The notes under the pieces were generated by a model that was not told the DNA's origin, ran no database searches, and worked only from the letters and a program-made list of their open reading frames with translations. 64,000 bases of DNA from the NCBI RefSeq assembly GCF_035084215.1, contig NC_090327.1:94054001-94118000 (forward strand), in the 5' to 3' direction. The position numbers and the translations under genes are program-made. This document shows, one piece after another, positions 4,649 through 57,261 of the stretch. The stretch comes from Heptranchias perlo (lineage: Eukaryota). Position 1 is the first letter of the stretch, and each line of letters begins with the position of its first letter.

Positions 4649-5767
4649 TTTAACACAAAGTACTGCATTACTCTTGAAAATATTCACAGCCTTTCAGGTC
4701 ATCTGGAAATCCTGTAGTTTTAACGTAATGAAAAATACACCGTGATCATTGTAGAAGTTCCCTTATTCTTTGCCACGGTCTAGGAACTGGAATGCAAGCA
4801 ATACTGCAGATTGCCAAAGCCATGTTCTGTTGCAATGAACGTTCACTGTGACTACCCTTACTGTAAATCATCCCTTATTGTGTGATTTTTTTTTTGAAAA
4901 CATTTGAACACACATGTGAAAAAAGTCTTGTTATGAAGTAATAGAGTATGAAGGACAAATTTTGGTATTTAAATGGAAACCATTTTCTGAAGTGGTCACG
5001 GGGAAAAGAAAGCAACAAAGACTGAATCTCAACTCCAAGACTCATTTTACATAGCAATGCCTAGAACGAAACAGATCACAATGGGAAACATCTCAGCTAT
5101 GCAAAAGGTCATGGTCAGTCCATTGGTAACTAAGCAACATTTTCAGAAATGGTAGTGTAGGTATGCAGTAATCCTGGCAAAGGCATACAGAGGAACGGGC
5201 AATACCTATGGCTTGGTTCACAATATCACAACAATTTTAAAAGGATATCAAAACTGAACTGTTATGTTAAGGTACTTTTCCACAAGTGCAAGGGGTGTGC
5301 CTGCATTACAAAAAGGAGTATAAAAGCAATAGACCATGATTTGAAATGGGGGAAATAAAATGCCATTAACATAGCTTGCAAACTATACATTAGAAAGTGA
5401 AAATATCTGCCTAGTCAGTAAGTCATCAACAGAATTGAACGGATCCTCAGGCTGTGCAAAGCAGATGATAAAGCAATTGTGGTCCCAGTTATTGGCATGG
5501 TGTTACAGAAAATGCACTCCAGTGTGCGACTTGGTGGAATTAGCTTTACCAGTCTCGAAACCTACTCAGACAGTTAACAACCTTAAAATACTAATTGTCT
5601 GCAGAAAACACTAAAGTCACATTTGCTATCAACCAAATGAACCTTTAAACAGGAATAAGTATATACTATAAGATCAATGATGATGTGGAGATGCCGGTGA
5701 TGGACTGGGGTTGACAATTGTAAACAATTTTACAACACCAAGTTATAGTCCAACGATTTTATTTGAA

Positions 5768-5808
5768 ATTTACAAGCTTTCGGAGGCTTCCTCCTTCCTC
5801 AGGTAAAT
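5768..5808 (-). ncRNA. Minimal type I hammerhead ribozyme (PLE family A)
   Basis: Minus strand: auuuac CUGAGGA a GGAGG aag CCUCC GAAAGCU U guaaau. 6-bp stem I, 5-bp stem II, palindromic AGCU stem III. Confidence 0.85.
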
Positions 5809-6077
5809 GTCAGGAACTCCTCGAAGCCTACGCATTTATAAATCACAGAACAATACATGGTGATTACAGATAGTCTTTGCAACTGCCCGTTGCCAAGGCA
5901 ATCACAGTGTTCAGACAGAGAGGTGTTACCTACAGAGCCCCGGAATATACAGTCAAAAAAACCCCAAACAAACAGAAAAAAAAACAGAGAGAGAGAGGCA
6001 GAAACATCCGGAAGGCAGAGAAAGCCAGCAAATGACCCGTTATATTAAAAACAGATAGCTTTTGTTCGCTGGTGGGG

Positions 6078-6272
6078 TTACGTGTAGCGTGACATGAACC
6101 CAAGATTCTGGTTGAGGCCGTCCTCATGGGTGCGGAACTTGGCTATCAATTTCTGCTCGACGATTTTGCGTTGTCGTGTGTCTCGAAGGCCGCCTTGGAG
6201 TACGCTTACCCGAAGGTCGGTGGCTGAATGTCCCTGACTGCTGAAGTGTTCCCCGACTGGGAGGGAACCCTC
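6078..6272 (-). pseudogene. C-terminal fragment of PLE GIY-YIG endonuclease
   Basis: SLPVGEHFSSQGHSATDLRVSVLQGG...EQKLIAKFRTHEDGLNQNLG*; the HF..H..D...E...I...T...GLN pattern of PLE GIY-YIG domains. Confidence 0.85.
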
Positions 6273-6461
6273 CTGCCTCTCTCTCTCTCTTTTTTTTTCT
6301 GTTTGTTTTTTTTTTGACTGTATATTCGGGGGCTCTGTAGGTAACACCTCTCTGTCTGAACACTGTGATTGCCTTGGCAACGGGCAGTTGCAAAGACTAT
6401 CTGTAATCACCATGTATTGTTCTGTGATTTATAAATACGTAGGCTTCAAGGAGTTCCTGAC

Positions 6462-6502
6462 ATTTACCTGAGGAAGGAGGAAGCCTCCGAAAGCTTGTAA
6501 AT
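6462..6502 (+). ncRNA. Minimal type I hammerhead ribozyme (inverted copy, family A)
   Basis: atttac CTGAGGA a GGAGG aag CCTCC GAAAGCT T gtaaat. Confidence 0.85.
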
Positions 6503-8257
6503 TTCAAATAAAATCGTTGGACTATAACTTGGTGTTGTAAAATTGTTTACAATTATAAGATCAATGAATTTAGAGTATGTTACTGGGAGGATCAGTTTGG
6601 GTACAAAAGTGACTTTCATTAGCAAAACAGCCATTCATCATAGTTGATTACAGTACAATAAAACAACACACCCTTTTCTAATCCACAAAAGCTAACACAC
6701 CACCAATAAAAGCATAGTTAAACTACATTTGCCATACGTTTTCCCTGCATCAGGATATGACACTCAGACATAAACTGGAATGGTGTATTCAAATTCTGCA
6801 GCATGATCTAAATTAGAATTGCGGTCAGAGTGGATACTGTATGCTTTTATCTGTTCTTGAATTATCTATTATATTTGTTGGAAGACTTTTAATTTCAATT
6901 AAACTGCAATCAGCAAATGTTCTGAATAAAGGCTGATTTCTGCAGAGCAAAAGCTTAAATCCAGAGTATGACAGCTTAAACGGATAACAAAAAAGATTGG
7001 TGTTGCTGAATCCCTAGTTGTGAAAAAAATATACTGGCAGATCATTAATCCCTTCCTTCAAACTGCAACTAATATGATTTAGCCATCGAGATACTGTATG
7101 TGCTGACGTCAATACAAACATGTACCAGTGGCTCTACCGACATTTGTGTTTTCACCTTTCGCTGACTGATGATCATAGACAGTATATTAACCTGTTGTTG
7201 ACTGATGATCACTAGTTAACAGCAATAGAAATAAATAGCATGTGTATTGAAATTGCTTTAACAAAGACAGTTGAGTGAATTTAAAATTGCTCCAGTGTTA
7301 AAACTGATTGATGGAAGCTCTAAATCTATGCTTCCTACATAAATACTTAGACTGGAGGGATCTGCAGTTCATAAGAGTAAAAATGCTGCAGCCTCTGGAC
7401 GGTTATCCTGACTGCTTGCACCAGAATTCTTGGTGGAGAAACATGCACAAGAATTTAAAGCTTTTGACTGATATTTTAATGGGAGTTGGAACATCCACAG
7501 GAATTAATTCTTTCAGAGGTCACTCCAATTCCCAGCCCACTGTAAACCCACCTGATGCTAGAAAGGATGCTCTGAATGATATACTGTACAGATAAATCTG
7601 GCTGTAGATATTTTACATCTAGCTTATCACAGATTTCTAAATAGGATATTATTTATTCATGCACTTGTCTCTGAACATTGAGATCAGCTTGACAACATAA
7701 ACCAATGACAAAGTAAACAGTAGCTATTGGGCTGCCACTTCACACAGAGAAGCCATCAGTTACTTGTCAAGATTTAAATGAAAAGGCTATAAAGGATTCT
7801 GTAAAACTGTACTGAATGATGAGCAGATAATCAATCAGGGTTAACTTCAGTATAAAGCAACAAGTTTATTTAACAAATGATTGCAGCAGGATTGATATCA
7901 ATTTAAGAATTATATTTATTTTAAAGAAATGATTCCCATACAGCAGGCATGTTAAAAAAAAATCTGCCTGATGATCTAGTTATTTTTTTAGGATTCTTCT
8001 AAAAGGTTAGATTTCAATAAAAGCACCACAGACTATATTCCTTTTTTCCAGTTTTCTTGAGTTCTGGAACCATACATGTGGATTCTGAACTGTGTGTTAC
8101 TTCCCTGGTGTCAGGATAAGGGGCAACAGTGCAGGTACGTAGCTCTTGTGGGGGGGGGGGGGGCGGGGAAAGAGGGAGAAAGAGACAAAATCAGCTGGAA
8201 GCCATTGTTCATTGCAAAGAGAAACAGGATTCAGGTTCCAAAATAGTTCCAGGATTT

Positions 8258-8464
8258 TGTTCCTCCCCTCCCTCCCCCCCTTGTACTTGCTCTGTACTTG
8301 CTTAAAAACTTTAACTCTAACATCTTCCAGTTCTGACGAAAGGTCTTCGACCTGAAACGTTAACTCTGTGTCTTTCTCCACAGATGCTGCCTCACTTGCT
8401 GAGCTTTTCCAGCATTTTCTGCTTTTATTTCAGATTTCCAGCATCCGCAGTATTTTGCTTTTGA
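8258..8464 (+). mobile_element. PLE 3'-end / pLTR fragment (family B)
   Basis: 10-bp TSD tccaggattt (8248-8257 / 8465-8474); contains an HHR and the tail ttcagatttccagcatccgcagtattttgctttt. Confidence 0.85.
8329..8365 (+). ncRNA. Minimal type I hammerhead ribozyme (PLE family B)
   Basis: agtt CTGACGA a AGGTC ttc GACCT GAAACGT T aact. 4-bp stem I, 5-bp stem II, palindromic ACGU stem III. Confidence 0.8.
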
Positions 8465-22913: not shown

Positions 22914-23376
22914 AAAAGCAAAATACTGCGGATGCTGGAAATCTGAAATAATGCAATTTACAACCTTTTGGACTCAACACTGATTTCAATAACTTCAGAT
23001 CATAACCACTGCTCCCATTTTTTTGGACAGTAAGTGCTGGTAATGGTTCTGCTGTTGCCATTTACAGCTCCTCTAGACCCATCTTTCATTTCTTTACTTG
23101 TCCCATTACCACCCTCCTTGCCGTACACCATCATCCCTTTTGTCATTTAAGCACTCCTGCCCTCCACCCTATCAGAGACTTTCCCTTTTGTTCTTTCCTC
23201 CCCTCCACTCCACCCTCCTTTTCCAGGCTCTGTACTTGCTTAAAAACTATTTAATCTTCAACTTCTTCCAGTTCTGACGAAAGGTCATCGACCTGAAACG
23301 TTAACTCTGTTTCTTTCTCCACAGATGCTGCCTAACTTGCTGAGTATTTCCAGCATTTTCTGTTTTTATTTCAGAT
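22914..23376 (+). mobile_element. 5'-truncated PLE (family B) with inverted tail
   Basis: TSD ggcagYagatc (22903-22913 / 23377-23387); 22914-22951 is the reverse complement of the family B tail; 22958-23005 encodes LQPFGLNTDFNNFRS* (GIY-YIG end); then pyrimidine-rich 3' UTR and HHR. Confidence 0.88.
23270..23306 (+). ncRNA. Minimal type I hammerhead ribozyme (family B)
   Basis: agtt CTGACGA a AGGTC atc GACCT GAAACGT T aact; differs from 8329 only in loop II. Confidence 0.8.
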
Positions 23377-28673: not shown

Positions 28674-31058
28674 CTGCTGCAGTGTAAACTTTTTCAATCC
28701 TGTTCTTAAATATCTTCGAGTTAAATGAGTTTATGGTGCCAGATGAGGTTGCATCACCAATTACAGCACTATATCCTCTCTTTTGTGCAGAACTATGGTT
28801 GAAGTGTTTGTACTGTGCCCTTTTAAGTTAATTACTGCAGATATTCAGATCAATGATTAAATAAATACAATAAAAAAATGAAATGGCTGCCTCCTTGGCA
28901 CAATAATGTAGAAATATTGGAATTGCTAGACTAAAAAAGACCAAAGTCCATTTAGTTTGCCTTCTATCATCCCTGTAGTCGCATGATACAATGATAATGG
29001 AGTTGTTGACTAATCATAGCAATCAATCTCTATCAATTAGTTTATAACAGACTCAGACATGACGTGAGGAAAACCCCAGTGGAGGAGTTTTGGGAACCAT
29101 AGGTTACATTATCAATTACTGTACAATTGCCAGCATACGCAACATATGAAGTAATAATACTTGGGAAAACAAATTTTTTTTTGGTGAACATACCTCACAG
29201 GAACTATCAAAATAATTCAATGACAAGCAGTGCTCTTTTCTGTATCTCATTTGTACCAGTTCAAAAGGAACTCAAAATATTTAGCTCACATCAGAAGAAT
29301 GACTAGCTGTGAGTAAGAGAAACCTGCATGACCTGAGGTTAATTTATTTAATTACTGCACAAAGAATTCAGACCTTCTGGTTTCAAAGAGGTTCTAGCCA
29401 TCTCATTTTTTCTGACAGATTTTCAACTTGAGAATCCATCTTAAGACGGTGAAAGAGATTATCTCATTTAAATCCAAAAATTTTTGTGAAAGCTTTTGCT
29501 GATGTAGAGCTGCTTGGGGTGAAATAGTTCAAACAGAAAGAAAACCCCAGTCAATCAACATGATTACCATTAATAAAATTAAATTAACAAACATTAGCCC
29601 TACAAAGGAGTTGAAAAATCCAGATTTTAAGGGAGGATAACAAACAAGACACTTTTTAAAATATCTGTAATTTTTCCCTTTCTATGGACATTGTCAGTAT
29701 GATTGATATTAGTAGTTTGAAATTTTAATTAAGAACAGCACATTAAAAAGACAAACTTTATACAGCATAAAATAAGATTGCATTAAACTGTAAAGCAATC
29801 AACATAACAGACAGGGAAGAAAAGATAGAAATGTTATGATTGTAGTGCTATGAGCTGTAACACCCCCACTTCAATATACACTGTTTTCAAATTCCGATTG
29901 ATCCTTTGTCTCTCAATGTTTTTCAAATGCAGTATGACATTTCAATGTACAGTACAATAAACTCAATCCAATGAGAATAATGAACCCTAAGCTCTGTATA
30001 TTTTTTTAAACCACAGCTACAACCTGTTACATTGTTGGCTTCACCTTATGCTAAAAACACCCCTAATGTGGTTAAAGACCCCCCCCCCCCCGCCACGTGC
30101 CAATCCCACCCTGAAACATTTGCCTTGTCTTTCATCATTACCTCAATTTACCAATTTAAACATGGAAGCACTTATATTTGTGGTGAATCAATATTAACTG
30201 ACACATTAAAATTAAATTCTGCACAATCACACATACGATAAAGTGGTGCATGCACTTTGAATCTTCAAATTGTGTTGGCTCCCAGGTACCGTTTCACCTT
30301 GAGAATCCAGGGTAAGGGGTAGAAACATGCCCTTTTTTATATATGAGTAGCACATAAGCAATGCCACAAAAACTGTCTCAAAACACAATGGATCTTAACA
30401 TTCATCCTTGTAAGAAAAAAAGATATTCCTCCTGGAGGCAGATAATCCAAAAATCTATTTGAAAGGCATGAGATGCAAAACATTTTGCAGAGTAAGATTA
30501 TCTCACATCACAGCATTGTTCACTTATTACACCTGCATTTTTTTGGATAATGCATTTTTGCAGCTCAATAAGCCGCCCCAAGGTTCATGAAAAGCTGCCC
30601 AGTATCCCTCTGAGGCATCATTAAAGAGCCTGTGATACAACAACATGCAGTCACTTTGACCTACAGAATATTAATAGTCAGGTTTGGGTTGTGGGTCAAT
30701 GAGCTCACAGAAACTTGGGTAGGAAAAGGTCACACAGAGTCCTCGTACATCACCGAGAACTAGAAGATGATGCGTGGAAAAGTAGAAAACTCAATCTGTG
30801 CTACTTGTAGATCTGGGTGCACATGTAGCTGTGGCAGCTCCTGCTCATTACTGGCAGCCTCAGTCGTATATAGGAAAAAAAAGATACACACTTGGGTATC
30901 CTCAAACCAAAGGGAAACAGCTGCTGCTTAACCCCTTTGGAGCATTTTACAGTTTGAGAAAAAGCACATAAAGCTCCACATAATCAATCGGGATAGCTGT
31001 GAAAGTGTTATCTGTACATACGAGTTGTAAATTAAGCAGGACTTACATGAATTATTCT

Positions 31059-31290
31059 TTTTTTAAAAGAAGAAAAATTGCAAATGCTGCAACTCAAATA
31101 AAAATTGAAAATGCTGGAAATACACAACAGACCAGTCAGCATTTGTAAAGAGAAAGAGCAGGTTATGACTTTTCACGCGTGTACCCTTCAGAACTAATGA
31201 AGGATATACACCTGAAATGTCATAAGCTGCCTTTTCTCTTTACAGATGCTGACTGACGTGCTGCGAATATCCAGCATTTTCTGTTTTTAC
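31059..31290. mobile_element. Old palindromic PLE-derived mini-element with decayed back-to-back hammerheads
   Basis: 11-bp TSD tgaattattct (31048-31058 / 31291-31301); arms gaaaatgctgga...gtcagcatttgtaaagagaaaag versus cttttctctttacagatgctgac...tccagcattttc; centre ctaatgaaggatatacacctgaaatgtc. Confidence 0.78.
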
Positions 31291-32560
31291 TGAATTATTC
31301 TACACAGTCACACAAGTGTTCTTAAAGCTCACTTCAGGAAGTGAGTTGCTCAAAATATCTGAGGTACACATAGGATTGGTGGAGTGCAAAACTTTACATT
31401 ACAGAAATGTGGTTATGATTTTGGCATTTGCCAATATACTTTAAACAGCTTGTGCATGATCCACACCCAAAAAAAAAACTGCCATCAAGATTTTTCTAGA
31501 GTCCAAAGCACAAAATCATCACTTAAGAACTATACACTAAAAACAAGAAAAGCCCATCAATGTGTTTAAATCCTTATCCCCAGTTGCAGAAAAGAATAAA
31601 AATGCATAGTTTTCTCCTTTCTCAGATCAGTAGCACAGTTGGAGGGCAGGATTATCAAAAGAGAAGCAATCACAGGCGTGAAGCCATATCCCACCCCTAG
31701 ATGTCGAGTGCATGTTGACAGACACATCATCATCATGCTGCACCACCACTGATGCCTCAGAGTTCAAATTTCGCAATTACATTTTTTCTGTACGCAGGAG
31801 TTATAACACCCCACCCACACCTTGGTGTTAACTGGAAGACATTCAACTTTTACTAGCAGAGATCAACTTCAAGAATGAACAGCTTGTACATTCACAATGC
31901 TGACCTTCGACTCTTCACCTCTGGGTCCTTGCCAATTATAGAACTAGAAGCTAGGAGCAAAGATCTGTGGCATGAGTACACAAACCAGTGTAATTCCTGA
32001 TATGTACCTCCGTTGCACAAACATGCAGACTGTCAGAACTTAACAGCTCTTAGAAGTTTAACTATTAATAATAGATGCTTTAAGTTTTCAACTAAATATC
32101 AAATATTTTACTTGTAGGCAAGAAATTAAAGAACATTATGTTAACTTGGCTGGAATATAAGATTCAATTTTTTTGAGGCTAAGGCTTGCAAATGATTGTA
32201 CCTCCTGTTGTATGCTCTATAAAAAGATAAAATGACAACACTGTACCAACTGAAAAATAGGTTAATGATGCAAAAGATACAGCTCGCTGAACCATAAATA
32301 ATGACTTTGTGTTACTGAAACTACTGGCAACGTTGCAACAACTGTCAGAAATGCCAAGGATACGCAAACTCAACTGAATTCCTGCCCTTTAATGGCTTCA
32401 TTCTTACATCTACAGAAGGTGTGAAAAAGAAGTGCATTTACAGGTCAAAATACACTGTGCTTTGAAGTCAGTCTCAAGAGGCTAGAACACAACATTCATT
32501 ATTCAACAAGTCTGACTGAACCAACCATCAGTGCAGAAACCCCTTATCAAATAAGCAGAT

Positions 32561-40225: not shown

Positions 40226-42546
40226 CGAGAGTTAAAATCTACCCTCCAGTCACACCTACACTCAGGAAAAGACAGGGCGGGGAGAAGAAATCAACCATCA
40301 TTCCCACTCCTGCACGTTATCTCCTGGCTTCTGTTGGAATGTGTGCTCGCGCAGTGTTAGGAGTGAGAGAAAGGAGAAAGGGAAAGGGCCTAACTGCAGT
40401 ACTCATACCCTCCATAATTGAATAGAATGTTAATTCTTTATTGGCACAGACATAAAAGAAAGACTAAGAATGATTTTCCAGAGGGCAGTGAGCATCGATG
40501 GAACAGTACACCATTAACAGTCGGTGATGTGGGGTAGGGAGAAGAGATGGGAGAGGGAAAATTAGAATTATGCATCAGTTGAAATTAAAGCATGCACTTT
40601 GAAGGGTATTTTTTTGCCTTTTTTTGGCTTGATTTTAGACCACACAGTCGCACAAGTATCAAAAGCAGAAGAATGTAAGCAAAAGGGGAAAGGTCAAATA
40701 AAGTTGTTGAAAAGCAGTCTGAGTAAACAGTGTGGACAGATGGTTTTAAAATGTGAAAGAAGGCAAAGGCAAAAACAAAAAACATCCAGAAACAATATGG
40801 ATATCCACAGACAGATCAACCAGCAAAAAAAGTTAAATAATACTACCTTGCAAATTACCACTAACTTTTTCCTCCTTCATTAAAGTAGTTTTGTAAATAA
40901 CAATTTCATAAATTTCAAACCATTAAAAAAAGGTTCTTTTGGGCATTTTGCATTAATCTGGTTTACCCGAGCCCAAATTAAAAATGGACTTGTCAAAAAA
41001 GCAATATACTGACTTGTGAAGAGAACAATAAATGAGACATTTTTCAAAAATGCAAGTGCTCTCCAAATAAAGTTAGATTCACCACTGAAGGAAAACGTTC
41101 TTTGAAATGTTAATTCTGTTACTATGTTAGCCATATTTGGACTTTCTAGATTTCGTTCCCCTCCTCCCCCCCAGTTTCAATATTTATTTTTTAGCAATTT
41201 CCTATATTCAGGGTTTCTTCAGTCTTTTTTTTGTTTAAAATGTCAAAATTGGATTAAGAAAAGCTTCACTCACACGTGATTGTTGCAATTATTTTATAGC
41301 GTTTTAATGACTGGAAGCATCTGACATACAATTCATCCAGAAAATGACATGAGAATTTTCTTTAAAAATCATCCTTACGGACATTTCATTTTTTTTCCCA
41401 AGAATTTTTGATATTTTATTTATATCAAAGTAAAACATTGGGGTTCTATTGGTTAATGCCAAAAACTGAGGGCCCTCTAGGGACTTTTCATAAGTCAACC
41501 AGGTGATGTAAAAAAAATTAAAAGCTAACTTTTTCCTACACAATTACTTTGAAGCAAAGCAGCTGGGAGCTTCCTTTCACTTTTTAAAAATGAACTTGTT
41601 GAGAAAACAATCACCTTGACCTTTTTTCAGTGCTAATGAAAACCACAGATTTCTGGGACAACGTCCAGTGGTATGCACTGCAAGGTAGATAGAGGAGGGG
41701 GCTACACTACCTTGGCCATGTTACATCAGCCACTTCACTACACTAATGAGACTTGCTGTTTACCACCAACAGTTTGCCATCAAATACAGTACTTTAATTT
41801 TCAAAGTAAACATCAGTACTGAAGTTAATATATTAACCGCCAGAACACTGTGTACAGGTCAAATTCTAGAGAGGCAGATAGGTTTTCTTTAAACCAATGA
41901 AGCTGTTGTGATAATTCCACGAAGCTCCCTTCCTCGCAGGCAGAAGATATAAAAGGTATGTTTAAGAAAAGAGCAAGCTGATTTCAAAACAATGGAATCT
42001 TGTCCTGCAAGTCTCAATTGGTTCATTTTCTAATCTTATGGAAAGGCACTGTTTAACCAAGGGAATCTGGAGACAATCAAAGGGTACTCAGCAAAAGATA
42101 TTGCTTTATGGATTAGTGAAGTAGGAAATATCATATAAAAGGGAGACTGCACCACTGTATAAGTTACATATTTCCCAGTTTGTAAGCCAGTAATAAAAAC
42201 TATTAAAAGGTACAAAAAGTATTGCAATGCAAGAAGGGGAGAGGTAGAGAAAACACCTTCCACGAAAACCACAAAAAGCCTCTAGACATTGTTCTGTGGT
42301 CAGAGAATGCATATTCCTCATTTATACCAAAGACAGCATCATGCAATAGTTGGAAATAGCGACAGCATTAGTTTCAGGGTGCATTTCACTTCCTTCTCAC
42401 AGAAAGGGTTCCTGTAACAGTGTGGGTCGCCCCATTTTTTCCCAAGGGAAGGGGAAAAAAAAGGGGAGGGGCAAAAATGCTTTGCATATGAAGCTTTCGG
42501 CAGGGAGAACAGACCCCATGAGTAGATGAAGCCAGCAGATGATTTT

Positions 42547-42650
42547 CTTCCAGTTCTGATGGAAGGTCATCGACCTGAAACGTTAACCCTCTTTCTCGCT
42601 CCACAGGTGCTGCTTGAACTGCTGAGTGTTTCCAGCATTTTCTGTTTTTG
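42547..42650 (+). mobile_element. PLE pLTR fragment (family B) with mutated hammerhead
   Basis: agtt CTGATGG a AGGTC atc GACCT GAAACGT T aac (A9 to G) plus family B tail; possible TSD atgatttt (42539-42546 / 42657-42664). Confidence 0.8.
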
Positions 42651-44059
42651 ATGAAAATGATTTTGTAAAGTTCCCAGCATCAGATAAGAGGATAATCAGA
42701 TTCATTAAAATTTACTCGTTAAATGCCAAAACTTTGTGTGCATACCCAAATTGGTAAGAATATCTTTGAATATTTACACTCAGTGAACTAAATTTTTTTT
42801 AAAAAATGTAGTGCGTCTTCTTTGGAAAAGTGGAGCTGCCGATCACACGCAACAAAAAACCTTTCCTCAAGATAAACTAGTGACAGCTGGCCCAGTGACA
42901 CCATCTGCTGGCATATCAACACGCTGAACTAGAGTGCTAGAACACAGGTTTACACCCACAATTTCCCACACCACGAGTTAGTAATCTCAGTTGGGCTGTC
43001 TGGGGGAAGGTGTCAAGTGGAGGTGAGGCACTTCCCCACAAAGAATAATTCAAGGGCCAAAATTAACCTGGCACACTCAACAATTAATTCGAGAGCAGCA
43101 TCAAGAGAGGACAACAGCAGCAGCTGGTCAACTACCCAGTTCTTGCTTAGGGAATTGATATTCGTAGAAGTGGTTATCAATTTATCACTTTTTACTTAAT
43201 TGAGTGTGATGTTCCGACTCTTTTGTTAACAAAGCACTACAATTCTTTGGAAAATTGCTTCTTCGCTGCTGACAAGAGTGAGAGAGAAAATTACATTTTG
43301 GAGGCACCGGAAGGTCAAATACCAAAATCCCACCTTAAAATACAGTGCCTCCAGGCTAATTGGATACAGATTGTGTGCCAGTCAATGCTGTTATGTTAAC
43401 ATGAGCAATTGGGAACTCAACACACAAGATAGTCAATCATAATCTATATGTTCCTTATAATACCCAGAAACTGCTCTTAACATCTCTCCCCAAGTAAAAA
43501 TTTTAATTCTTATCATTTTAGTTATAGTAGAAGTAAACACTGTTAAGTCTCTTGTCCTCCACACAAAATAAACCAAAAAAAGAAAATTGCATGAAAACAT
43601 ATAATAGGAACAAGATTGTGATGGAATTAATAAAATAATCAAAACGAACAGAGTACATATCACTCTCAGAAAAGGAGTCACTGCACAGTAAAATACTGAA
43701 TGGTATACAGCAATAAGGTGAGTTCTTGATCTTGGCTATGCTAGCACAAGGAAAGACAAAATGGATCCCAGGCATTTCTGATCCCAGGGTAGAGATGACA
43801 TCAGTAGAGGGGAAATTTTAAAAAAGCAGTAGCAGTCATACAGCTGTCTTCACCCAATTCCTATCAGCCAGGTACAGAATAGTATTGGAGTAGACCTGAG
43901 AATCTCCACTCTGTAATCTCAGTCGGTGTAGGTTCGTGGCACAGGAGACTCCAGGACAAATAAAGGGAAGAATTTTTAAAAATATTTACACTAGAAATGT
44001 AAATACTAGGGATATTTAGGGCCATTATCAAGCTTTATGGTCAGTATGAGGCAGTTATT

Positions 44060-54390: not shown

Positions 54391-55824
54391 AGAGGCTTTC
54401 AAGCCAATTTCTAAAATATATACATCAGTTATTTAAAATGACTGTTGCAGTGACATCGGGAAAGGGCAGCCTAGCAGTGAGTCCTTTCAGGCTTCACTAA
54501 AATGGTCATCTTAAATCTTCAATGAGATGTCTGCAGGAGCTGCTGCTTAAACCCTGAAGACAACCACAGGGTAGTCCACATGCACGGACCATTTTGCTCT
54601 CTTAGCTGAAACTGGAACCGTAAGCTCTCAGGAAAAGCAGCTCAAAGGAAGTTTAATGTACATCAGAACTAAAAAGGAAAAAAATGTTTTGTGGAGTTCA
54701 TTGAAAGATTTGTATCTACACAGTGTAGTATTTTGACCAGACAATGCAAACTGAAGTATTGTGCTATTTTATGCTTAACCATTGAGGAATTCAGTGGAAT
54801 CAGTGGAAAAACAAAGGCAATTAATAAATTAAATCATATATCCCTACATCTTCCCCGTGCCACCGAAAAACCGTCCTTGATGATCAGGAAAGGATTAATA
54901 ATCCAATACATGGATAACCAGTTCAGTACCCAGATTCCCTTCATTCCCTTCGTAGACAACACAGGACAGACCAGGGAGTGATGTGGTGCATCCGATGGGT
55001 TTGTGCAACACAGACACTGAGCTTCCAAAGCTACATGTACAATAAAGACTAAGTCATACTAAGTAACCACTTAAACCGTTCATATCATTTTGGTGATAAT
55101 TCACATTGAGAGTTATAACATCCTTGTGTCCTCCACAACAACAGCAACTTGTATTTATGTAGCACCTTTAACATACTAAAATATCACGAAGCATTTCAGA
55201 GATGTGAAGGGAACTGGCTGATAACTGCTAACTATTCAAATGACTGCCTGTCAGCCAACAAAAGAGTGATTTCAAACAACTGGTGAGCTTTACGAACATA
55301 ACTAACTAATGAAACACTTGGTTTCATTCTCGGATCCTAAGGCAAGGCAATACAATAAAAATGTCATGGTGTGTTATTTGACAATGCAGGACATACAAAT
55401 CTTAGCTCCAATAATGAAGTTTTTTTTTTCAAAAGGAACCTTCAAACAAACTAATGTGACATAGTCAGTGGTGAGCATTGGTGAAATCGTGACTTTTTGG
55501 GCACTTGTTAACAAGCAGAGCTTCAAAGAGGTGAGCTTGTTAAACAAAATACTGTTACAAAAGACAGGCCATAATGGGTGCAGCCCAATGCAGACGTAGA
55601 CGACAATACTTGGGTTTTAAAGATCCACATATCTGTCTAGTGTTCCAAAAAGTGGGCAGAATTTTGGCAGTATATGGAAATTGTAATTATGAGGCAACTC
55701 TATGTTCCCATAATTGCTCTACCCTATTTCATGTTATGATGTGGAGATGCCGGTGATGGACTGGGGTTGACAATTGTAAACAATTTTACAACACCAAGTT
55801 ATAGTCCAGCAATTTTATTTTAAA

Positions 55825-55863
55825 TTCACAAGCTTTCGGAGGCTTCCTCCTTCATCAGGTGAA
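55825..55863 (-). ncRNA. Minimal type I hammerhead ribozyme (family A variant)
   Basis: Minus strand: uucac CUGAUGA a GGAGG aag CCUCC GAAAGCU U gugaa; 5-bp stem I with a compensatory change relative to 5768-5808. Confidence 0.85.
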
Positions 55864-55872
55864 CGATGTGAA

Positions 55873-55905
55873 ACCTGACGAAGGAGGAAGCCTCCGAAAG
55901 CTTGT
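55873..55905 (+). ncRNA. Hammerhead core with truncated stem I
   Basis: ac CTGACGA a GGAGG aag CCTCC GAAAGCT T gt; only 2 bp of stem I remain because the inversion breakpoint lies inside it. Confidence 0.6.
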
Positions 55906-57261
55906 GAATTTAAAATAAAATTGCTGGACTATAACTTGGTGTTGTAAAATTGTTTACTATTTCATGTTGGATAGTTTAAAGGATTTCTCTCCCCTTAATC
56001 CCACCCATTTACATCCTCATCCTGTAACTATTATCAGAACAACTCAGAAAGCAAGTGAACAATCATTTCAGAAACCAGTTAAGTGGAATTGCAAGTTGCT
56101 ATTCTGGTTTATGGACCATTAGTCAGAAATTAACTGGTCAATAGTTGCTGACAACACTCTTGCTTGTTGGTAAATTAACTATCCCTCTGAAGGGTCCATA
56201 TTTCATAATTTTCAAACCCAACCCCATCCCTCATGCTTATCAACTTCAATCACCTTTGCATTGCAAGAAACCCACTCCCCGTTTTTAAGTGGTGCGCCTG
56301 GATCTTGTACTCTTCAAGTAAATTTCTGTTGATTCACAAATGCCACAGGATAATTTCCTGAAAAGTTGCATATGACAGTTTCACAGGAATTAAGAGGAAA
56401 AAAAATCCTTTGATGGCAGTTAGCGTAAATGTAAACAAACAATCTCCAGGGTGGTATTAACTTGTATACTAGAATTCTATGCTGTGCAATAGTTCAGGTC
56501 AGACCAAAAAAAATCCTTGCAGAATAACTGGTCTTTTGATTAATAGCAATGACAATACTGGGACTGGGCAAACAGTTGCATTGCTACTTTTTAAAAAAAG
56601 TCAATAAAATGTCTTTTACTTTTGGTATTCCAAAAAGTATACATTTATGAGCTAACAATGCTGGACACAATGTCCTTTTAGGACATTCAATCAACCCCAA
56701 CTTGGTCTGTGATGTAAATTTGAAAGTTCAGGTGTTCATTGGCTGCTAAATGACACAAAGGATTTACTCTTAAAATACACAACCAAATCCTCTATAGGAA
56801 AATCTGTGTGTGGAGATTAGATTAGGATGAAGAGGGCTTCATGCAACTTCTTCACATAAAAGGAGTGATCAATACCAAGAGTGGACTTCAGGTACAATGG
56901 TGGAGGTGAAAATAATTTACAAAGCCATTCATTGCTGCGATGGAGGGGGGAGAACAACTATTGGGTCCTTCTGGATGAATGACTATGATGAGATGATTGG
57001 CCTTCATCATTTGTGTCTATTTTGTGATTTTATGAACTCTTGTAGAAAAAGAAAGTGCTATATGTTATTAAGCACCTTCCTTAATACCCATGAAATACAA
57101 TTCCAAAATCTGTATTTCACATAAGAAAACAACTCTCCAAGAACCTATACATAAACCCAATCACATTCTGCAGACAGTAATACCAGACACAATGGATAAT
57201 ATGGTATGGTCCAATTACAACACAGAGTGAAATGTGAAAGAATACTACATTGTGTAGTGAT

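Follow-up and report, generated by a model that had tools for sequence, protein, structure and literature searches.

The window analysed here is a 64,000-nucleotide stretch of the Heptranchias perlo genome that contains, at positions 55736–55956, a fold-back insertion that is flanked by a 12-bp target site duplication (TSD) and made up of an unpaired 40-nt tail and two 85-bp inverted arms around a 12-nt loop. The left and right TSDs (55724–55735 and 55957–55968, plus strand) carry the same word, CTATTTCATGTT, and the first C of the right copy doubles as the last arm base. The tail (55736–55775, minus strand) is the distal part of the 5′ leader of a parent Penelope-like element (PLE) and runs to the AT of the ATG of the parent ORF. 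Arm 1 (55776–55860, minus strand), delimited by inverted-repeat alignment and folding, is the tail-bearing copy of the leader, and the loop that follows (55861–55873, minus strand) aligns with the parent as the 5′ leader of this same arm, with no spacer. The loop reaches parent base 32 as counted from the TATA box, 2 nt short of the start predicted at base 30. A55873 forms a 1-nt overlap between the loop and arm 2 (55873–55957, plus strand), the tail-less leader copy, which begins at parent base 45. The initial annotation had described a 221-bp fold-back with a 12-bp TSD, a PLE tail, an 85-bp hairpin with a single mismatch and no coding sequence, and the alignment and fold bear out both the coordinates and the anatomy.

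The whole hairpin folds with −158.7 kcal/mol (z −22.7), and none of 200 shuffled sequences folds as well. The element exhibits 96% identity over 127 nt to an intact PLE unit, and the downstream leader is common to the two subfamilies involved; on this alignment the insertion is therefore only the 5′ leader of the parent PLE, up to the ATG, present twice and head to head. Within the 3′ part of the leader, the minus strand of 55736–55810 forms a stem-loop (z −2.6) whose inner hairpin holds the tail-less start site. By analogy with the meaning given to PLE tails in PMC11167929, the 40-nt tail would sit between two reverse-transcription start sites.

The single mismatch between the arms (55854/55879) lies at core position N7 of the hammerhead and at a CpG site, as had been noted initially, and is a CG-to-CA change. 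CG stands at this position in the parent and in most copies, on both arms, and the change is private to the window copy among 29 flank-distinct loci with the same loop. Comparison of these copies identifies it as ordinary CpG decay, and a designed feature was rejected on the same grounds (1/29 copies).

Hammerhead motifs and related insertions

The hammerhead motifs were read by hand against the description of minimal hammerhead ribozymes in PMC4209133. The minus-strand motif (55824–55864) is a complete minimal type I hammerhead, in which stems I and II fold (z −2.2). It has a 6-bp stem I, a core at 55858–55852 (N7 = 55854), a 5-bp stem II and GAAA, with the palindromic AGCU standing in for stem III, and its cut site is predicted between 55830 and 55829. 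The plus-strand motif (55873–55909) is incomplete, retains 2 bp of stem I and does not adopt the hammerhead fold (z −0.25), so the core, stem I, stem II and palindromic 15.x–16.x positions of a minimal PLE hammerhead occur together only on the minus strand. The description of two back-to-back hammerheads thus holds for one motif in full and for the other in part, and the statement that the element is made almost entirely of them overstates their share, since together they cover approximately 78 of the 221 nt. An Rfam scan of the 64-kb window at E ≤ 1 returned no hammerhead family and two chance hits only.

Within the whole element both hammerheads are predicted by the fold to be locked in the arm duplex. 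Whichever direction transcription takes through a head-to-head pair, the antisense arm comes first, so the sense hammerhead would be zipped up as it is transcribed. Hammerhead cleavage was rejected as the cause of the breakpoint, because the arms extend across the predicted cut, which lies on the 3′ side of the core. The features shared with minimal metazoan PLE hammerheads (PMC4209133) are a bulged base before stem II, the lack of a true stem III and a dimer-forming palindrome. Minimal type I hammerheads on opposite strands, paired 100–700 bp apart, are described there for Schistosoma; unlike these pairs, the cores of the present element are only 16 nt apart and one is without stem I.

The window contains other insertions of this kind. 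A long inverted PLE insertion of a sister subfamily (5680–6554, minus strand) has one tail and a 13-bp TSD (5667–5679 and 6554–6566), and its arms align over 610 and 298 nt, continuing beyond the TATA box as far as the 3′ end of the ORF, with 283 nt of inverted arms that are 95% complementary. A further fold-back (31059–31290) is flanked by an 11-bp TSD (31048–31058 and 31291–31301) and has arms that are 80% complementary. It had been annotated as an older element of the same architecture, which is correct for the layout, but it belongs to another family and both of its hammerhead cores have decayed. This second, older hammerhead family has the palindrome AACGTT and is also represented by single copies at 8310–8435, 23251–23376 and 42533–42658.

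Parent Penelope-like element

A search for the tail and its continuation gave 876 matches in the genome. Intact tandem units of 3,081–3,083 bp are present at all three of the long loci fetched (L186, L188 and L189), and each intact unit encodes a 902-aa ORF with its ATG at the end of the tail. The intactness of these units suggests that the family has been recently active or is still active. The ORF product matches RVT_1 in Pfam (E 3e-10), and a DKG motif, a CX4CxxC linker and a GIY-YIG-like VVY..C..C..YIG with two inner cysteines were recognised by eye; the GIY-YIG domain gave no match in Pfam or in a PDB sequence search. The CX4CxxC linker and the GIY-YIG cysteines are features of Neptune and Nematis according to PMC8557442. 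The parent is accordingly named from motifs only, as a putative EN+ PLE of the Neptune/Nematis type. It has the single ORF with reverse transcriptase and C-terminal GIY-YIG (the latter seen by eye only) in tandem units, and its insertions exhibit the inverted copy, the one-sided tail of 30–40 bp and the variable TSD of this class.

The intact parents belong to a sister subfamily, in which the downstream leader is the same as that of the window element and the promoter stretch is different. The promoter subfamily of the window element itself is seen beside a fragment of the reverse transcriptase ORF at L113; three ORF scans and the flank reads of L111–L115 gave no intact full-length copy of it, and the latter five loci hold truncated or rearranged copies only. 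Upstream of the leader, the parent carries TATAAAT with an A at base 30 counted from its first T, which we take to be a TATA box and an initiator-like base from the TATA and Inr consensus sequences. At least six subfamilies share TATAAA and the hammerhead, and the intervening 30–40 nt are almost wholly different. The differences between subfamilies include stem I, with compensating changes. Promoter turnover thus appears to be fast across these PLE subfamilies.

Copy number, junctions and arm ends

The genome searched comprises 3.25 Gb. A fold-back pattern with exact 15-nt arms, a gap of at most 30 and a free junction matches 1,777 loci for the window subfamily, and the sister subfamilies give 3,709 strand matches, of which the first 100 listed correspond to 73 loci by hand count. 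These patterns demand near-identical arms and allow gaps of up to 30, the sister pattern forces one arm to approximately base 34, and almost all of the samples described below lie within the first 80 Mb of a single contig. Some fold-backs are duplicated together with their flanks (L005, L006, L020, L021, L024, L029 and L030; L199–L201); these sit on small contigs or at a spacing of approximately 15 kb, as segmental duplications or redundant haplotypes, which inflate the copy counts.

The first 50 of the 1,777 loci carry 44 distinct junctions. An 11–14 nt word is shared by the flanks in 43 of them as a TSD, and the tail ends within −2 to +4 of the ATG in 47. The exact junction of the window element is found at 34 loci, approximately 2% of the 1,777. 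Thirty of these were fetched, including two flank duplicates, with the tail on the long arm in 10 and on the short arm in 18; over the 29 flank-distinct loci with the same loop, the tail is again on either arm (11 versus 18). Variants of the source are carried by the two arms together and under either tail orientation (one variant in five loci, another in two), the loop is present on at least three source haplotypes, each of them in both arms, and only two single-arm variants recur, each in two loci. Because variants in both arms and both tail orientations occur under the same loop, this junction is, on sequence grounds, one that arose repeatedly from different source RNAs, and with the tail on either arm and several haplotypes in both arms its recurrence is no proof of a master copy. 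In the sister subfamilies one junction type accounts for 23 of the 73 loci among the matches listed (hand count). The junctions are therefore mostly unique, but tightly clustered and in part recurrent, which is a mixed outcome for the proposal that identical junctions would mark a transposing unit and unique junctions one-off products. A uniform family with a fixed junction, as seen in the best-ranked BLAST copies, was rejected as a ranking artefact after the free-gap pattern searches, since BLAST ranks copies by likeness.

Breakpoints pile up 29–33 nt from the parent TATA box, in a peak that is spread over several bases and blurred by T/A-rich flanks. Exact genome counts for patterns starting at bases 33, 30, 29 and 26 from the TATA box are 3,511, 2,342, 1,874 and 1,572, a loss per base of 12.6% (33 to 30), 20% (30 to 29) and 5.7% (29 to 26). 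From base 26 to the TATA box the loss is 0.8% per base, with 36 of 44 copies continuing in the first 80 Mb of contig 1. Thirty matches fetched from this exact-pattern count represent approximately 27 insertions, and 15 of the matches end at 29–33, seven at 19–28 and eight pass the TATA box.

Arm ends were examined in 67 fold-backs, of which 53 were assigned a parent by best match and 14 have none. The spacing between the TATA box and the ribozyme core differs among subfamilies, so explanations based on one or the other can be separated. Where core position C3 lies at bases 45–47, the longer arm ends most often at base 30, which is 17 nt before C3 (7 of 25 loci, none past base 29); where C3 lies at 39–41, the most frequent end is base 31, at a distance of 10 nt before C3 (15 of 28), and four of these 28 short-leader loci pass the peak, three of them reaching base 23. 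At base 31 the most frequent sister junction shows an overlap of 3 nt, so the choice of overlap could add to that peak, and in seven of the 73 sister loci among the matches listed (hand count) the join falls at a natural palindrome upstream of the peak. Across the subfamilies compared, the arm stop follows the TATA box and not the ribozyme. The initial annotation had placed the breakpoint just 5′ of the ribozyme core; the clustering tracks the TATA box, so a random 5′ truncation near the hammerhead is not quite the correct description.

The TATA box and its spacing point to the peak being the transcription start, approximately 30 nt from the box. Two single, non-inverted copies with TSDs (L060 and L062) also begin at the predicted start site; they consist of leader and tail only, a SINE-sized product of one cDNA. 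Four of 13 RNA runs were compared with the parent leader as contigs, which cannot show starts, and gave no pile-up of starts or ends and no strand-changing joint. With 55% of matches lost between bases 33 and 26, approximately half of the arms of the window subfamily would be wasted run-off copies.

Origin of the two arms

Exactly one tail is present at 50 of 50 loci of one sample and 16 of 17 of another (66/67), and only L204 among the insertions sampled carries tail sequence on each of its arms, shortened on one of them. Among the 53 assignable fold-backs the tail arm is longer in 21, the tail-less arm is longer in 23 and the two are equal in nine. The 53 junctions comprise 30 with overlaps of 1–6 nt, six that are blunt and 17 with insertions. 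In 72 of 115 fold-backs compared the arms are identical over 70 nt; in four others among the 115 (L031, L048, L073 and L090) the arms belong to different recurrent haplotypes within one TSD, and unlike arms are also found at sister-subfamily loci C1:36382334, 38001514, 58655282 and 63176341, although later gene conversion could also produce such mixed arms. The junction insertions at L053, L079, L089, L118 and L199 are copied from nearby element sequence. Insertions templated from nearby sequence are expected of polymerase-theta-type joining.

These fold-backs are probably dead-on-arrival run-off products of PLE integration, made anew at each locus. The autonomous Neptune-type PLE would be transcribed from its pseudo-LTR TATA/initiator promoter, with a start approximately 30 nt past the TATA box, and its protein would cut both target strands approximately 12 nt apart. 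Both target 3′ ends would then serve as primers for reverse transcription at internal sites of the RNA. The cDNA begun at the ATG would include the tail, and the other, begun approximately 40 nt upstream, would lack it. Priming at the first leader–ORF junction would let both cDNAs copy through the uncut hammerhead and run off the 5′ end of the RNA after approximately 105–145 nt, after which the two cDNA 3′ ends would be trimmed and joined via short overlaps or small insertions, and fill-in would create the TSD. Longer copies such as 5680–6554 would result if a tandem read-through RNA were primed at one of its later leader–ORF junctions. We infer that one RNA usually serves both primings and that the two cDNAs are united by end-joining.

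In vitro, the Anolis PLE protein cuts and extends both target strands and uses two internal start sites that bound the tail; the RNA template is uncut, ORF sequence 3′ of the start sites is required, and a shortened RNA 5′ end yields shorter products (PMC11167929). The Anolis start sites lie approximately 111–118 nt into the ORF and not at the ATG, so these results transfer to the shark fold-backs by analogy. Since the fold-back lacks the TATA box and ORF sequence, it should be neither transcribed from itself nor re-mobilised. It may possibly hold an internal promoter, as in Drosophila Penelope (PMC2377424).

The alternative that a single cDNA at the RNA 5′ end, or a self-priming antisense template, folds back and copies itself into the second arm would account readily for arms that are identical over 70 nt, for source variants present in both arms and for the palindromes or tiny hairpins at many junctions. 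With such a cDNA the second arm would receive the tail as well, and the longer arm would always be the same one; two primings are favoured for this reason, given the one tail per insertion and the near-equal numbers of loci in which either arm is longer. The zero-loop joins at 6-nt palindromes (L197 and L204) require two molecules, and some loci differ between their arms at linked diagnostic sites, which makes self-copying unlikely. It is similarly improbable that the arm stop reflects a barrier other than the transcription start, such as stalling of the reverse transcriptase after the hammerhead stems, an RNA processing site or a favoured overlap. Many shorter arms do stop within stem I (bases 36–45) and overlaps occur in more than half of the junctions (30/53), but the distance of the commonest end from the core drops from 17 nt in some subfamilies to 10 nt in others, with its position at TATA base 30–31 unchanged, the single non-inverted copies L060 and L062 start there too, and the predicted hammerhead cut is on the opposite side of the core.

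The initial annotation had left two readings side by side, a short product of PLE integration, which the data support, and a self-propagating MITE-like or retrozyme-like unit, which they do not. For the latter, a few master hairpins would be transcribed and re-inserted as intact units by PLE protein acting in trans, and repair would sometimes flip the loop. The 34 loci with the window junction, the most frequent sister junction type (23 of 73 loci among the matches listed, hand count) and the 94–100% identity of the best-ranked BLAST copies are what such a unit would give. It is nonetheless very unlikely, as the window junction makes up only a small fraction of the loci, the tail is found on either arm, at least three source haplotypes occur under the same loop in both arms and just two single-arm variants recur. 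The hairpin also has no TATA box and none of the ORF sequence that follows the tail on its 3′ side and that the Anolis protein requires (PMC11167929), and its RNA would be an 85-bp duplex.

Nor does the element correspond to the known classes of short repeat. MITEs have terminal inverted repeats at both ends that are shared with a DNA transposon and a fixed short TSD; here one end is an unpaired tail, the TSD is approximately 11–14 bp and the sequence is a retroelement leader. A MITE- or SINE-like family would share one internal structure inherited from a master, and 44 junctions among 50 loci with variable tail side and haplotypes do not conform to this. Non-LTR retrozymes consist of head-to-tail units with at least two consecutive ribozymes on the same strand, and this element is inverted with one motif per strand. 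The insertion at 55736–55956 is inert and belongs to a very numerous class of PLE by-products; it is neither a MITE nor a retrozyme. As one of thousands, its value lies in the evidence that it provides on PLE integration.

It is about as likely as not that a single protein dimer, acting on a single RNA, starts cDNA on the two target strands from a pair of fixed sites 40 nt apart. The fold-backs would then document this integration step across the whole genome. Every insertion would begin as a pair of converging cDNAs, only one of which has the tail; a one-unit transcript would yield the leader palindrome only, and the junctions would map the transcription start of each subfamily to the base. 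This limit on one-unit transcripts would explain why PLEs need the tandem form to spread. How inverted and tandem PLE structures form is presented as an open question both in PMC8557442 and in PMC11167929, and the latter also leaves open the joining of the cDNAs. One tail per insertion, the shortening of either arm, the stop at TATA base 30–31 and the insertions with two haplotypes sharpen the question of integration into tests.

The architecture of the fold-back is already published. PLE insertions normally comprise inverted 5′-truncated copies, a tail on one side and a TSD (PMC8557442). Head-to-head palindromic junctions, read as self-priming on an antisense template, and TATA and Inr motifs in the pLTR have been described as well (PMC3846280). 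According to these papers and PMC2377424, canonical EN+ PLE insertions share with the fold-backs the inverted copies, the tail at one end and a variable TSD near 10 bp, as well as the junction palindromes and the TATA and Inr-like pLTR motifs of Adineta. Unlike these, the present fold-backs are without any ORF, number in the thousands and have a junction pinned to the predicted start. The counts argue against the published self-priming reading of PMC3846280 and favour two primings on sense RNA. A literature search confined to the main texts of open-access papers found neither a start-site pile-up nor a two-priming count for PLE fold-backs.

The Poseidon element PAc of Anolis carolinensis (PMC11167929) appears to share with the shark PLE, by analogy from sequence, two internal reverse-transcription starts that define the tail, cutting and extension of both strands, an uncut RNA template and an RNA 5′ end that sets product length. 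The start sites are inside the ORF in PAc and at the ATG and 40 nt upstream in the fold-backs, and unlike PAc the parent here has the CX4CxxC linker of the Neptune/Nematis type. Thousands of near-perfect palindromes of 85–100 bp may give double-stranded RNA if transcribed, and fold-backs of this kind could be mislabelled as MITEs or microRNA hairpins in repeat libraries. In L1 twin priming both target strands prime cDNA and the inversion is joined via short overlaps. That process yields non-overlapping inverted pieces, whereas in the fold-backs both primings would copy the same leader and give a perfect palindrome.

Non-LTR retrozymes (bioRxiv 10.64898/2026.07.22.740005) are likewise short, non-coding and PLE-derived with a type I hammerhead. 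They differ from the window element in being same-strand tandem repeats with two consecutive ribozymes, whereas the two halves of the fold-back are inverted and each strand has a single ribozyme. One locus of the genome (L187, G000:C2:21272500–21277200) holds a head-to-tail array of nine 404-bp units, each composed of the promoter region, the leader with the hammerhead, the tail and the initial 129 nt of ORF sequence. Judging from its unit structure, this array is a real retrozyme-like form and, unlike the fold-backs, it retains the TATA box and the start of the ORF.
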